Positions 41 through 9,623 of a stretch of 14,709 nucleotides of DNA are shown here, piece after piece (the stretch's first letter is position 1; each line of letters starts with the position of its first letter). Both the position numbers and the translations under genes were made by a program. A model generated the notes under the pieces. That model had not been told where the DNA came from. It did no database searches and saw only the letters and a list, made by a program, of their open reading frames with translations. Origin of the DNA: a virus; the UHGV virus genome UHGV-0109417. The stretch is one strand, 5' to 3'.

Positions 41-259
41 TTGGAGTCATTACCGTTTTTTGGCCCCTTCTATGGTGGCTATAATGTAATCAAACTGGAT
101 GATGAGTATAAGTATGCTCTTGTCAGTGGTCCGAACAGAGAATACCTATGGATTCTGGCAAGGACCCCAACTATTCCAGATAAAGTAAAAGCAGACTATG
201 TGCGAACCGCTCAAAAGTTGGGATTCAATGTCAATGAATTATTATGGGTTAAACAATAA
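41..259 (+). pseudogene. Blc-like bacterial lipocalin, C-terminal fragment of about 70 codons; the N-terminal ~100 codons are absent
   Basis: Translation (SLPFFGPFYGGYNVI...YLWILARTPTI...) matches the C-terminal third of lipocalin Blc from memory. In-frame stop at 23-25 and no lipocalin-like sequence in any frame of 1-40. First in-frame start is TTG with no SD. Confidence 0.55.
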
Positions 260-1827: not shown

Positions 1828-2282
1828 TACGCCTCCTGCTTGTCGCGGAGCAGCTGGAACTCGCAGCTCTGCGGAATAGTCAGGTGGCAGCCAATATTCA
1901 TCGCCCAGGCTTCAACCTTACACAGGAAGACATACATCTCTCCGGTATCAAGATTGGAGGTATGACGTAATGACTGAATGGTGGTGATTTCACCGGTTAC
2001 GACATCAACCAGTTCTTTGGTTTCATAACCGAGATAAGTGTGTTTGAGAGCATCTTTTACCCAAGCTGGAGTGGCGAACGTTTTACCCCTGCTGATGAGG
2101 TATTCACTGATTTCGCTGTACCACATGTGGCTGAGTGCATTCTGGGAAAGACTGCGTCTCTCGCGCCACGGTTTAAGCACCATGCGAAAGCATTTGCCGT
2201 CCTCCAGATAAGGCTGGATCTGCCGACCGATAGCGGTGAAGTTACCGCGATGCAATTTGATACCATCTTGTGGGAGGTTCAC
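1827..2282 (-). CDS. ybcN: YbcN-type (NinB-position) recombination/base-flipping protein
   Basis: 151-aa [24 protein letters not shown]... recognised as DLP12 YbcN-like. GTG start is preceded by GGAGG with a 6-nt spacer. Confidence 0.75.
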
Positions 2283-2488
2283 GCTTCACCTCCGCAGAGA
2301 TCAAACGCTGGATGCAAAATATCGCAGGTGCATTTCTGCATCTGTGAATGGAGAAGAGAGGTTGGATTGTATGTGCGCATAAACGTCCCCGTTTAGCGCA
2401 GAAGTCACCGAAGTTGTTCAGGCTCCGATTACTTAATTATGGCAAGTTGATTATCGCAAATCAAAGGTTTTAATTGTGCTTTATTCTT

Positions 2489-2689
2489 TCAAGCGTTTCC
2501 TTCATACCAAAGCCTATAAAGTTTTTCTTCTTCGTTTGGGTTAATAGGCTCACCATGTTTTAATTTTTCAGTGTACAAAATTGTTGAACAAATCGCGGAA
2601 GTTAATCCAGTGATCGCCATCTGCCGCAGATCGGATTTTTGTGTCCCCCTCAACAGACGATCTCCCATCCATGTAATAATTGTATCCAT
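2489..2689 (-). CDS. Hypothetical small protein (66 aa), first gene of the moron
   Basis: ORF with ATG at 2689 preceded by AAGAAGGG. AT-rich compared with the flanking phage genes. No homology recognised. Confidence 0.4.
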   Translation of the reverse strand: MDTIITWMGDRLLRGTQKSDLRQMAITGLTSAICSTILYTEKLKHGEPINPNEEEKLYRLWYEGNA

Positions 2690-3275
2690 GCTTCAGCCCT
2701 TCTTAGTAAATAGTGTGTAGGGCGACTGAAGGACCGAGTTTATGCTTTTTCGCATTGCTTTCAGTTAGTAGACCGGTATAGCACCGGAAACAATCCTACG
2801 GCAAATTGGTTGTCTGACCTCTCGGTTTTTCGTGCATTAACCGATACCCACTACAGTCTCGGCGAAAGCTGCACACCCCCAAGGTGTACTGGTAGCACTC
2901 GGCACAGCCTAGCGCGCCACTTTCTTCTCACTATCCAGTCTAATTTTATCCCCTAGTCAGACACTCAGATGTAGTGCTCAGCAGCGGCATGCGGGGGAAT
3001 ACAAAAACTCGGACAAAATTGGGCCCTCCTTTTTGAATCACTCGCGGGGATGTAGTTATTAATACATGGGAAAAGATCTGTTTTCAAATCCAACATTATA
3101 TGGTTTCAATACCACGGGGTGGCTATGTGTTTCTCATTATTATTTACAATCTACTGTAATCGCTCCGAACGCAAATGCGTCAATACTCGAATCAACTGAT
3201 CATCCTGCCACGACTGAAATCTCAAATAGGCCGTTTCTCAAGTAAGAGATTTTGAATGCATTATTGGCTACTGAA
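2690..3275. other. About 590-bp non-coding stretch inside the moron; candidate ncRNA or regulatory region
   Basis: No ORF of 60 aa or more on either strand, and hand scanning of the minus strand found only peptides of 14 aa or fewer. Bounded by the terminator at 3276-3300. Contains a plus-strand sigma70-like promoter (TTGAAT-18-TATTAA near 3036-3065). Confidence 0.3.
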
Positions 3276-3300
3276 ATAAAAAACCCAGCGCAAACTGGGT
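3276..3300 (-). terminator. Intrinsic terminator after the secreted-protein gene
   Basis: Stem ACCCAG/CTGGGT (3283-3288/3295-3300) with loop CGCAAA, followed on the minus strand by TTTTTATTT. A T-run on the plus side lies 10 nt away, so it is possibly bidirectional. Confidence 0.65.
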
Positions 3301-3318
3301 TCATATGAAATTTTTTTG

Positions 3319-3813
3319 TCATTTCCAATTGCAAGACTGTGAAATTTTTTCCACAACCTTATCAATCTCAGACAAGTCAAACTCAACTACTTGCATAGTT
3401 GATCCATAAGGTTCAAACCCAAAAATAGCTTTTTTATGCTTAGCCAAGGTCTTTATAAATTGTATTGGTTGTGGAGCAAATGCAGAATCACCGCCTTCCC
3501 CACCTCCCCAAACACTCTTGACCGGCTTTCCGCCATCTAACCGCACTGTAATTCTTGGGTTGTCCGAACCCATATAATCATTGAATGATAAATAGGCATC
3601 TGTTTTGTTATCACTACAACGCAACACCAGTGAAGTTGCACGATCAGTACCTGCTTTGTTATATGAATCTGGTGATAAATTAAGAGCCACAAAGTCAGTC
3701 TGGTCAGTCATTTTATTTATCTCAGACTTTGTTATCCACGGCCCTAACTTCTCTACACCAGCATTTGCTGTAAACGAGGCACTTATAACAAAGGCTAAAA
3801 TAAATTTTCTCAT
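3319..3813 (-). CDS. Secreted/periplasmic protein of unknown function (164 aa, Sec signal peptide, two Cys)
   Basis: N-terminus MRKFILAFVISASFTANA-GVEK is a typical signal peptide with an AXA cleavage site. AAGGAG RBS 8 nt upstream of the ATG. AT-rich. Own terminator. Confidence 0.75.
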   Translation of the reverse strand: MRKFILAFVISASFTANAGVEKLGPWITKSEINKMTDQTDFVALNLSPDSYNKAGTDRATSLVLRCSDNKTDAYLSFNDYMGSDNPRITVRLDGGKPVKSVWGGGEGGDSAFAPQPIQFIKTLAKHKKAIFGFEPYGSTMQVVEFDLSEIDKVVEKISQSCNWK

Positions 3814-3959
3814 AACCCTATCTCCTTGGATTCAAAGAACTAAATATTATCAAGTCTCTTGCCACTAGAAAACCCACTTTATTTCCAAACTCTGATGGCA
3901 TTCCTGAAAATCCGCTTCATACTCACTTGCCCCGCCCTATCATCCTGAGTAGCTAACCG

Positions 3960-4133
3960 TTAAACAAACGTTCGCCAGACCTTACCATCAATGACCAGGA
4001 TTCCTGCCCGCGTCATTTTTGCCGCAGCCTTATTTATGCTGGTTAATGTCACACCTGTTGTCGCAGCAACGTCCGGCGCACAGAAGCTCTTGTGCGTCTC
4101 CAGATAATGAATAATTGCCTCTTTGCCCGTCAT
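3960..4133 (-). pseudogene. ren: Truncated ren (57 codons; lambda Ren is about 96 aa)
   Basis: Hand translation MTGKEAIIHYLETHKSFCAPDVAATTGVTLTSINKAAAKMTRAGILVIDGKVWRTFV* matches the N-terminal half of lambda Ren, then diverges and stops. ATGA overlap with the P stop. Confidence 0.65.
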
Positions 4134-6431: not shown

Positions 6432-7208
6432 ATGGTTAAAAAAGACGATTTAAAAGAAGAATTCTCGAAAAGACTTCGCGCTGCATTGCTTGATGCTGGC
6501 GTTGGTGGTCGTGGGCAGGCTGGTAGGATCAGAGAGGCTATGAAGTCCCAAGGAATTACTGTATCTGAGCCCGGGATCTGGAAATGGCTTAACGCATCAG
6601 CGATACCAGACCAAACCAATATCCTTGCCCTTAGCCGCTGGCTTGGGGTACGGCCTGAGTGGCTTGAATACGGAAGGAATGATCCCGAACCTGAACTGCG
6701 TAGGGAGTCATCTATCCCTCCAGAATCTGAATGGGGAACTGTTGACGCCTGGGATAAAAACACACCGCTTCCTGCTGACGAGGTTGAAGTGCCGTTTCTT
6801 AAGGATATTGAATTTGCGTGTGGCGATGGACGCGTACACAGCGAAGATCACAATGGTTTTAAGCTCAGGTTCTCAAAGGCAACCCTCCGCCGCGTTGGAG
6901 CTAACACAGATGGGTCTGGCATCCTGTGTTTCCCTGCTACTGGCGACAGCATGGAACCTGTGATACCGGATGGTACGACTGTAGCCGTCGATACGAACAA
7001 CAAACGCATAGTTGATGGGAAACTGTATGCCATTGGTCAGACAGATGGCGGGAATGGTCAACTCAAGCGCATTAAACAGCTGTATCGTAAGCCAGGTGGG
7101 AAGCTGATCATCCGCAGCTACAACAATGAGGCCTACCCTGATGAAGAAGCTGACATTGATGATGTTGAGATAATCGGCCGCCTCTTCTGGTACTCGGTAT
7201 TGCTGTAG
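6432..7208 (+). CDS. cI: CI repressor (N-terminal HTH, C-terminal S24 LexA-like autopeptidase)
   Basis: 258-aa ORF with G-D-S-M serine motif and downstream Lys (KRIK) typical of S24 peptidases. Divergent from cro. Confidence 0.9.
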   Translation: MVKKDDLKEEFSKRLRAALLDAGVGGRGQAGRIREAMKSQGITVSEPGIWKWLNASAIPDQTNILALSRWLGVRPEWLEYGRNDPEPELRRESSIPPESEWGTVDAWDKNTPLPADEVEVPFLKDIEFACGDGRVHSEDHNGFKLRFSKATLRRVGANTDGSGILCFPATGDSMEPVIPDGTTVAVDTNNKRIVDGKLYAIGQTDGGNGQLKRIKQLYRKPGGKLIIRSYNNEAYPDEEADIDDVEIIGRLFWYSVLL

Positions 7209-7254
7209 CGGTGGCCTGATGAGACGTTTTGGTGAAAGCATATAAGGACTGGTG

Positions 7255-8121
7255 ATGGAAAACACTGGCTTACACGATGTTAATTTTTCACTTAGATATG
7301 ACGGTTTGGATGCTGAAAAGCATGAGATTGAACTTTCTTCGCTCGGTGAATCGCTAAAGGGATTTTCGAAGATATTAGCTACAGCTGGAACCTTCGCATT
7401 AACCCAAAAGTACTCGCGAAGCACCTCAACTCAAGAGGTTAAAATTTACGCTACCGAAGCTAGGGCCAATTGTTTTTCTCTTGATACTATCATGAATTTT
7501 ATCAGTCAGTCTCAATTGTTCTCAGGGTCTGCGGGGGCTATACTTGGCGCATTAGTGCCTTATATCTTCGCTAAAAACTCGCAGAAGAAAGAGGAAATGA
7601 AATACCTAAAAGAAGCACTTGAGAAGGCAATTGAGGCCCTCGGAAATAAAGATAAAGATACCATCTCAGGTCTAATCTCAGTGATTGACAAGATGGCTAG
7701 TGAGTTACGCCCATCAGTTAGACAGGCAGTTTCCCCCATCGGTACCACCTGTAATAAGATAAGCGTCACACCGGGGAATGGTTTCAAGCCTGCTGTAATT
7801 GATGAGCAAGATAAAGCAGTAATAGACCAGTTGGACGACGACGAAGTTCTTGGCTTAAGGGAGTATCGAATCTTCCTTACTGAATTCGACGCTCACCGAA
7901 TGACCGCTAAAGTCATTATAGAAGGTGATGATTCAGATAAGCGCATCTCAGCACAAATAAGCGATCCATCTGCTTCAAAGGCAGACAACCCGTATCTCAT
8001 TTCACTTAGTCGTTTTCTGTCAACGGGTCTAAGTCATGAGTCAGCGGTAAAAGTAACTGCCAAAGCAGCAGTTAGAAAAGGGGCTATTAGTAAACTTTTC
8101 ATAGTTGATATTGAGCTTTAA
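7255..8121 (+). CDS. Hypothetical protein (288 aa) in the rexAB-equivalent slot downstream of cI; candidate exclusion/defence gene
   Basis: ATG at 7255 with AAGGA RBS, 47 bp after the cI stop and on the same strand. Ends at a strong intrinsic terminator. AT-richer than cI. No similarity to RexA or RexB recognised and no obvious multi-pass TM segments. Confidence 0.8.
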
Positions 8122-9143: not shown

Positions 9144-9365
9144 TTACTTGAACTTCCAGCCAGTTCCTTTCAGGGAATTCCTGAGCATGTCGTCGATCTG
9201 TTTTTTGACCGTGTCCGTGGCCTGATTGACAACATCGTCCTTAGTGATTTCTCGACCACAGTCAGCACAACTGACGCCGGTGAAATTTGTCTCAAAGTCA
9301 AAATCATCGGGCTGGTTGAACATCTCACTTCCGCAGTCAGGGCACACGGTCCGCATGGTTTGCAT
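9144..9365 (-). CDS. Small zinc-ribbon protein (CPDCG...CADCG), 73 aa
   Basis: ATG at 9365 preceded by AAGGA. Two CxxC pairs spaced 14 residues apart. Codon usage is better than that of the antisense plus-strand ORF 9057-9404. Confidence 0.6.
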   Translation of the reverse strand: MQTMRTVCPDCGSEMFNQPDDFDFETNFTGVSCADCGREITKDDVVNQATDTVKKQIDDMLRNSLKGTGWKFK

Positions 9366-9503
9366 GAATATATCCTTTCTACTGTTGGGGAGATTAAAGA
9401 GTAAGCGATTTCTTGCTGTTGGGGAATAGCGGGAAAGCGCGCGCCGGGCGCGGATAAATACCCCGGCACTAACTGGAATGTTTTGGGCTGGCAGACGGTT
9501 ATC

Positions 9504-9540
9504 AGCTAGTTGGTGAGGTAATGGCTCACCAAGGCGACGA
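9504..9540 (+). other. 16S rRNA helix-11-like segment forming a perfect hairpin
   Basis: AGCTAGTTGGTGAGGTAATGGCTCACCAAGGCGACGA matches, from memory, the conserved 16S region around E. coli positions 240-290, in a non-enterobacterial variant with compensatory changes. Stem TTGGTGAG/CTCACCAA with loop GTAATGG. Flanks (about 9450-9585) show weaker 16S-like similarity. Confidence 0.45.
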
Positions 9541-9623
9541 CGGCCTTCCCTGCTGCTTGAAAGCGGGGAGCCAGCACCAAAACATTTCTCCCGCATCAGC
9601 GGGTAACGACAGAGGGTAAGGGG

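Follow-up and report, generated by a model that had tools for sequence, protein, structure and literature searches.

The locus examined here raises a simple question: what is the small secreted protein that a lambda-like prophage encodes between its ren and ninB genes, and what might it do? The window, by which we mean the whole 14,709-nucleotide stretch of UHGV virus genome UHGV-0109417 that was analyzed, covers the early-right and immunity region of such a prophage. On its minus strand the genes follow in the order cro, cII, O, P, a decayed ren, an ORF of 164 codons, an ORF of 66 codons, ninB (ybcN), ninE, DUF1364, rusA, and Q; an identical segment is present in E. coli AR_0369, next to ybhC. 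A sequence-only reading had described the 164-aa product as a secreted moron protein without recognizable homology. We report that the gene is a domain-only, phage-borne, distant variant of the VasI/TagO family, not an orphan. Our confidence in this family assignment and in the moron architecture of the surrounding cassette is high.

The ORF between ren and ninB encodes a predicted periplasmic protein

The coding sequence occupies positions 3319 to 3813 on the minus strand (164 aa plus the stop codon). Its product, a VasI/TagO-like predicted periplasmic protein, is identical to RefSeq entry WP_001224618.1 and belongs to the phage protein family PHROG 1848. The ORF is a real gene, far beyond what chance would yield, as judged from several lines of evidence: dN/dS values of 0.088 to 0.16 against relatives of 59 to 81% identity, which indicate strong purifying selection; relatives at 110 viral loci in IMG/VR; presence of the cassette (window positions 3200 to 3900) in 84 of 5,426 complete E. 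coli genomes, almost always at an identity of at least 99%; and a full-length match to PHROG 1848 (E value of 2.7e-70, residues 1 to 164 against residues 1 to 166 of 166).

The translation begins with the predicted Sec signal peptide MRKFILAFVISASFTANA exactly as it had been quoted in the sequence-only reading (codons 1 to 18; positions 3760 to 3813, minus strand). The expected n-h-c pattern is present: a basic n-region (MRK) is followed by an 11-residue hydrophobic core (FILAFVISASF; mean Kyte-Doolittle value of 2.5) and by a signal peptidase I site in the precursor, A-N-A↓G. Neither a lipobox cysteine nor a second hydrophobic segment is present in the 164-aa precursor. Based on these sequence features, the precursor would be exported through Sec and cleaved after A18 to give a soluble 16-kDa periplasmic protein, with computed values for the mature form of 146 aa, 16.1 kDa, and a pI of 5.9. 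Two further observations are consistent with export, namely, that AlphaFold pLDDT values below 50 are confined to residues 1 to 17 and that the n-h-c pattern is kept in every homologue of an alignment of 25 close relatives (alignment A1).

The precursor contains exactly two cysteines, C66 and C161, in agreement with the earlier description. Both are invariant in the 25 close relatives, in 40 diverse relatives (alignment A2), and in an alignment of canonical VasI proteins (alignment A6). In an oxidizing compartment, these residues probably form a disulfide, which is predicted to tie the C-terminal helix to the sheet. Among the 40 diverse relatives, conservation falls on aromatic, Gly, Pro, and Cys residues and on D37, R65, and D93. 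Because these residues look structural, and none looks catalytic, a binding role appears likelier than catalysis, and the product most likely acts by binding something in the envelope.

The gene is carried in a moron cassette

The gene lies in a low-GC insert of ∼590 bp (positions 3275 to 3866, minus strand) that is flanked by the ren pseudogene on one side and by the nin region on the other, and this insert comprises a putative promoter element, a ribosome-binding site, the ORF, and a terminator. Across positions 3001 to 4000 the GC content is 0.37 to 0.41, compared to 0.50 to 0.58 in the flanks on both sides. The ribosome-binding site, AAGGAG (3827 to 3822, minus strand), was read from the sequence 8 nt before the ATG, and a purine block of the GGGGATAGGGAT type is conserved at this position in the relatives. 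Downstream of the stop codon, a terminator scan detected an intrinsic hairpin, GAACCCAGTTTGCGCTGGGTTT (3302 to 3281, minus strand), followed by a T-run that extends to ∼3272. The ribosome-binding site and terminator noted from the sequence alone are thus both in place. The hairpin is kept in eight of nine divergent relatives through compensatory changes in the stem (CCCAGC/GCTGGG, CCCTCC/GGAGGG, and CCCCGC/GCGGGG).

Upstream of the ORF, we identified a putative extended −10 element, TGaTAATAT (TGATAATAT; 3852 to 3844, minus strand), with the TG at 3852 to 3851 and the −10 hexamer TAATAT at 3849 to 3844. It is preceded by a weak −35 sequence, TTTTCT (3872 to 3867, minus strand), and the predicted transcription start lies at ∼3837. 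A scan with consensus promoter models returned no site upstream of the ORF, and the element was missed owing to its poor −35. Conservation argues in its favor: among 42 distinct upstream sequences from relatives, 30 contain a TGnTAnnnT motif at 39 to 49 nt before the start codon, for an expectation of 0.02 per interval scanned, and approximately 10 of the others keep TAGGAT without the TG. The T, the A, and the final T of the −10 hexamer are invariant in the alignment of upstream sequences (alignment A3). From this pattern we infer that the extended −10 element is the promoter of the gene.

Nucleotide similarity to relatives in unrelated phage backbones is confined to a segment from 3275/3278 to 3821/3827, which corresponds to the ribosome-binding site, the ORF, and the terminator, so that the hairpin is part of the segment exchanged between backbones together with the gene. 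On the upstream side, homology to the ren gene of sibling lambdoid phages ends at ∼3868. The decayed ren itself (3865 to 4133, minus strand), which is interrupted by a premature stop codon at 3960 and, by comparison with intact ren genes of siblings, has a deletion of 1 nt, marks the upstream junction of the cassette; it is annotated in RefSeq as "protein ren; frameshifted; internal stop." A sequence upstream of the gene, GTGGGTTTTCT, was considered as a remnant of a terminator and rejected, as alignment identified it as the 3′ end of ren. As a separate observation, the phage with the decayed ren also lacks rexAB, whose action Ren counters in lambda.

The P-ren segment is shared at >90% identity by 152 sequenced phages, a single one of which (IdasGreatGrand) contains the cassette. 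With its low GC content, its transferable unit of ribosome-binding site, ORF, and terminator, its conserved −10 motif, and its absence from 151 of 152 siblings, the cassette strongly supports the proposal that the gene is a moron. It occupies the nin region in E. coli lambdoid phages and a site upstream of the tape-measure gene elsewhere, and in being extra DNA at varying sites, in its base composition, and in its own terminator, it fits the moron definition of Juhala and Hendrix, with a putative promoter of its own.

The slot between ren and ninB is a hot spot for cargo

In sibling lambdoid phages (loci L104 to L108 were compared), the ren-ninB slot is a hot spot for cargo genes. It holds the defense system PD-lambda-1 in PhiR26_1 (L104, positions 612 to 2114), Rha in PhiR5_1, and, in PhiR30_1, an acyltransferase and a lipoprotein of the outer membrane. 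In PhiR68_2 the slot is filled by an SMR transporter gene and ybcK, and ybcL lies beyond these. The layout of PhiR68_2 recurs in phage Turner, where the genes are annotated as QacE and a hypothetical protein of the same size.

Between the cassette and ninB, the window contains a separate mosaic module (2470 to 3240, minus strand) that is present in only some sibling loci. It consists of the 66-codon ORF (2489 to 2689), for which neither Pfam nor PADLOC gave a match, and of ∼580 bp without ORFs (2700 to 3280). A structured RNA in this ORF-free segment was considered and rejected, since positions 2700 to 3100 fold no better than shuffled sequences (z score of −0.57). Rfam searches likewise gave no match, either for the whole window at gathering thresholds or for positions 2280 to 4000 at an E value of ≤1.

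Elsewhere in the window, an ORF of 289 aa (7252 to 8121, plus strand) lies directly downstream of the cI-like repressor gene (6432 to 7208) on the same strand, in the slot that rexAB occupies in lambda. It matches the Pfam families DUF7946 (E value of 3.8e-62) and DUF7947 (E value of 1.2e-20) and, weakly, the candidate defense protein PDC-S42 in PADLOC (E value of 1.1e-5), and it may be a prophage-expressed defense gene. An ORF of 150 aa (9144 to 9596, minus strand) gave a weak match to the PADLOC candidate PDC-M14A (E value of 4.4e-5) that may be due to chance. Beyond Q, the identical E. coli prophage (L001, 7384 to 9060) encodes a lipocalin-family protein and a YbgA-family protein, which look like further cargo of the same prophage; part of the lipocalin gene is visible at the left end of the window (41 to 259, plus strand).

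The protein is a single VasI/TagO-type domain with an IalB-like fold

Contrary to the sequence-only reading, in which no homology was recognized, the protein is related to a described family: it contains a VasI/TagO-family domain with an IalB-like fold, and the identical protein in RefSeq already bears the name "type VI secretion system-associated protein TagO." The direct Pfam match is marginal, with the VasI model (PF11319) scoring 26.7 bits for a gathering threshold of 26.5 and covering residues 56 to 163 only. PHROG 1848, the phage family to which the gene belongs, carries no functional annotation ("unknown function").

Stronger evidence for the assignment came from profile comparisons. 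A clade profile was built from the 25 aligned close relatives and searched against 1.84 billion representative proteins. This search retrieved 3,829 representatives at an E value of ≤1e-3, of which 1,231 remained at an E value of ≤1e-10, and it reached VasI proteins at E values of 1e-20 to 1e-27. In a sample of 40 of the retrieved representatives, 36 matched PF11319. For a direct comparison of profiles, alignment A6 was assembled from 23 proteins selected by motif (21 representatives of canonical-type VasI, the TagO of the E. coli Sakai T6SS-2, and gp67 of Brucella phage BiPBO1). An hhalign comparison to this alignment gave a probability of 100% (E value of 2.7e-45) across residues 20 to 164, so that the mature protein is, as judged by profile alignment, one complete VasI domain and nothing else (codons 19 to 164; positions 3322 to 3759, minus strand). 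Specific residues agree with this assignment. W163 is nearly invariant in alignments A1, A2, and A6, and the ACxW(K) motif at the C terminus is present, reading SCNWK here and ACNWK or ACHW in other VasI members.

The predicted structure is an IalB-like, beta-rich fold with a C-terminal helix, and superposition on IalB (PDB entry 3DTD) supports this classification. By sequence, a search of the PDB returned only chance-level matches, and no match of the 164-aa protein to the IalB Pfam family (PF06776) was obtained. IalB (invasion-associated locus B) shares its fold with the phage protein but only 9% sequence identity, and it is encoded by a chromosomal gene of alpha-proteobacteria, not by a phage. 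Both IalB and RgsG, an IalB-domain protein that acts in basic envelope growth, are envelope proteins of unknown action. The structure prediction and Foldseek search that the sequence-only reading had proposed as a check gave this IalB-like fold, and all matches in BFVD were uncharacterized proteins. The housekeeping periplasmic homologue that it had named as evidence against a phage-related role was not encountered.

The name TagO is too specific for the prophage gene

The phage protein and VasI/TagO proteins (PF11319, formerly DUF3121; for example, VCA0118 and ECs_0222) are homologous over the whole of the mature phage protein. Both carry a predicted signal for Sec export, the two invariant cysteines, and the ACxWK motif at the C terminus, and both keep the conserved W, D, RC, and W positions. 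They differ in length (∼200 to 250 aa for VasI/TagO versus 164 aa for the phage protein) and in genomic location, as VasI/TagO genes lie in T6SS clusters between clpV/vasH and tssA, whereas the phage version is a prophage moron. TagO of the E. coli T6SS-2 (ECs_0222), which is encoded between clpV and tssA, shares 18% identity with the phage protein (pairwise E value of 0.028) and scores 179 bits on PF11319, compared to 26.7 bits for the latter. On TIGR03360, the NCBIfam equivalog model, the phage protein scores 14.4 bits and thus fails the cutoff of 124.2.

A further difference concerns the N-terminal C...RLxCYD module. This module is absent from the phage clade, in which the signal peptide runs directly into the domain. 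It is invariant in the 23 proteins of alignment A6, an alignment assembled from motif-bearing proteins, and 57 of the 150 top-ranking representatives possess it. The domain is promiscuous and occurs, in addition to T6SS-type proteins of ∼207 aa, in 23 short forms with only a signal peptide before the domain and in 62 longer proteins, some of which have N-terminal parts resembling cytochrome c (CxxCH) or zinc ribbons.

The genomic position points the same way. The gene of the window lies in the ren-ninB interval of a lambdoid prophage, and among all relatives examined, none was located in a T6SS cluster; all were in prophages. Given the low identity to ECs_0222, the missing N-terminal module, the failure on TIGR03360, and the prophage location, the name TagO is too strong, and its use in RefSeq for the prophage gene and its relatives is over-specific. 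A practical consequence is that genome surveys relying on this name can score prophage cargo as T6SS components. Literature searches on DUF3121/PF11319, on TagO in combination with prophages, and on the RefSeq accession turned up no account of a phage-borne copy. The gene is therefore one that databases have already named, over-specifically, while its phage-borne form is undescribed in the literature searched.

Relatives recur as accessory genes in unrelated phages

The distribution of the gene is sporadic and accessory. Among species-representative genomes, a close relative was found at 3 loci only. In IMG/VR, the gene follows P and ren and precedes nin at each of the 42 loci with 98 to 100% identity. 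The more distant relatives examined, at 81, 79, 74, 68, 59, and 55% identity, all lie in the tail operon of another group of siphoviruses, represented by prophages of Klebsiella, Salmonella, and Pantoea and by prophage contigs from metagenomes. In these phages, the gene is preceded by a DUF6246 gene and by Arc, Ant, and KilA-N genes in variable combination, and it lies 42 to 110 nt before the tape-measure gene. The next ORF encodes a tape-measure-like protein of 730 to 1,220 aa in 27 of the 37 IMG/VR loci that could be assessed, and in most of the remaining assessable loci, one extra small envelope protein is interposed. Two such arrangements were observed. In loci L068 to L073, the stop codon of the VasI-like gene is followed after 4 nt by the start of a gene for a 105-aa protein that has a membrane segment at its N terminus (L069, 6522 to 6835, plus strand). 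In L053, the gene interposed before the tape-measure gene encodes a 128-aa lipoprotein with an LAGC lipobox (6591 to 6977, plus strand).

Coevolution with the adjacent tape-measure protein was considered but found no support. A single variant of 79% identity is paired with tape-measure proteins of 733 to 1,122 aa, which makes the adjacency positional rather than coevolutionary. The site upstream of the tape-measure gene is that of HK97 gene 15, the first moron to be described, which encodes a superinfection-exclusion protein (PMC3594210). HK97 gp15 and the phage VasI-like protein follow the same genetic logic, in that each is a small, envelope-targeted protein in an autonomous cassette. They are unrelated in sequence and in fold: gp15 is a YebO-like inner-membrane protein, whereas the VasI-like protein is predicted to be soluble and periplasmic. 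Furthermore, the cassette of the window lies in the nin region rather than in the tail operon, and of the two proteins, exclusion has been demonstrated for gp15 only.

More distant VasI-domain genes are found in phages of still other types. In P2-like phages, they lie at the prophage edge next to a gene for a zinc-ribbon protein; in Brucella phage BiPBO1, the homologue lies directly downstream of a cI-like repressor gene on the same strand; and further examples occur in phages of Pasteurella and Acinetobacter. In one P2-like prophage record, that of Escherichia phage 500465-2 (L091, 4235 to 5465), the gene after that for the zinc-ribbon protein encodes 297 aa, with a VasI domain and three C...RLxCYD modules in tandem. 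This record continues into the host genes flk and fabB, and the pair at the edge could be phage or host DNA. Finally, a Foldseek search of predicted viral structures retrieved uncharacterized relatives in the lytic T4-like phages RB16, KP15, and VH7D.

A tentative role in envelope protection and its alternatives

As a working explanation, we propose that the gene is a self-transcribed moron encoding a periplasmic VasI-like protein that serves as an envelope-protection or superinfection-exclusion factor. Taken as a whole, function included, this explanation is a possibility that we advance tentatively. In such a scheme, the gene's own promoter would drive its transcription in the lysogen, and read-through would do so in the lytic cycle. 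The exported protein would bind a conserved periplasmic or envelope component on the host side and would thereby hinder the passage of superinfecting phages across the periplasm, and possibly that of other puncturing devices, without being part of any type VI secretion machine of the host. We favor this role because of the recurrence of the gene at sites of exclusion and defense cargo, the family member in a repressor operon, the fold relatives in lytic phages, and slow evolution. Strong purifying selection further suggests a target that is conserved and host-side, as does the finding that tape-measure proteins from 733 to 1,122 aa accompany a single variant of 79% identity. The case is circumstantial throughout, and the genomic context lends soft support to a phage-centered role in the envelope. 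Cargo location is weak evidence in itself, as the same slots also carry nondefense genes (SMR transporter, Rha, and acyltransferase). PADLOC gave no match for the 164-aa protein, and no homology to a known exclusion or defense protein emerged from PADLOC, PHROG 1848, or BFVD. Most of the envelope proteins known to mediate exclusion are membrane proteins or lipoproteins rather than soluble periplasmic proteins. The only genetics available for the family also speaks against exclusion, as the phenotype of VCA0118, the VasI of Vibrio cholerae, concerns T6SS-dependent killing and not protection: VCA0118 is dispensable for secretion of Hcp and VgrG but is needed for the T6SS-dependent killing of amoebae and E. 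coli (PMC3166118).

That phenotype invites a different explanation, in which the phage supplies a TagO/VasI-like accessory that tunes the T6SS of the lysogen itself, for example, toward more efficient killing, so that lysogenic conversion would make the host a stronger competitor of other bacteria. A factor needed for killing and not for secretion could conceivably be supplied in trans, the protein belongs to the VasI domain family and is named TagO in RefSeq, and tagO genes are present in E. coli T6SS-2 clusters. The distance to ECs_0222 in both identity and PF11319 score, the low TIGR03360 score, and the lack of the C...RLxCYD module nonetheless set the protein apart from T6SS-borne TagO, the relatives examined lie in prophages rather than in T6SS clusters, and a VasI-domain gene occurs in a phage of Brucella, a genus without a known T6SS. 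We regard a T6SS accessory as distinctly unlikely. A moron that benefits the host is somewhat easier to entertain, although we still consider it doubtful. By analogy to Bartonella IalB and to prophage-encoded YbcL and SodC, the protein, whether periplasmic or released at the surface, might promote adhesion, invasion, or resistance to stress or serum. Such a role fits poorly with a family that spans phages of Pantoea, Klebsiella, Salmonella, Brucella, Pasteurella, and Acinetobacter, whose niches are very different. The fold relatives in strictly lytic T4-like phages argue against a purely host-virulence role, since a factor for lysogenic conversion makes little sense there. The analogy to IalB is also limited, as the phage protein does not match the IalB Pfam family, and the service of the IalB-domain protein RgsG in basic envelope growth implies that the label "invasion" says little about mechanism.

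A role confined to the lytic cycle was also weighed, in which the protein would act in the periplasm to adjust the timing of lysis, to protect against lysis from without, or to spare progeny from cell debris. The fold relatives in lytic phages are compatible with this idea, as is the orientation of the gene, which matches that of the early-right operon in the window and that of the tail operon in the relatives and would allow antiterminated read-through. Set against this are the conserved promoter-like element and the terminator that flank the gene, a hallmark of autonomous expression; the lack of the gene in 151 of 152 lambdoid relatives, which marks it as dispensable; and the homologue situated in a repressor operon. 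We consider a lytic-cycle helper very improbable. Envelope protection or superinfection exclusion is the reading that we carry forward, at the tentative level stated above.

Implications for the VasI/TagO family

Should the protein prove to act in exclusion or defense, it would be a soluble periplasmic member of a group that consists mainly of membrane proteins. A broader proposal, which we offer as speculation and think unlikely to hold, is that domain-only proteins with the VasI/IalB fold form a widespread, unrecognized class of moron-borne periplasmic "guards" in phages, which would block phage genomes or puncturing devices by way of an envelope component. The carriers envisaged are lambdoid phages, phages with the gene in the HK97 slot, and P2-like, Brucella, and Pasteurella phages, with fold relatives in T4-like phages. 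Were this proposal true, it would explain why T6SS clusters keep VasI/TagO, a protein needed for killing and not for secretion, and it would also account for the role of IalB.

What VasI/TagO does has been an open question since 2011, for 15 years, and a 2026 review of T6SS accessory factors still lists the function of TagO as unknown (PMC13584744). The version described here is minimal, comprises a single domain, is independent of a T6SS, and travels among phages as a self-contained cassette. It can be expressed alone in E. coli K-12 and would provide a simple handle on the binding target of the VasI domain.
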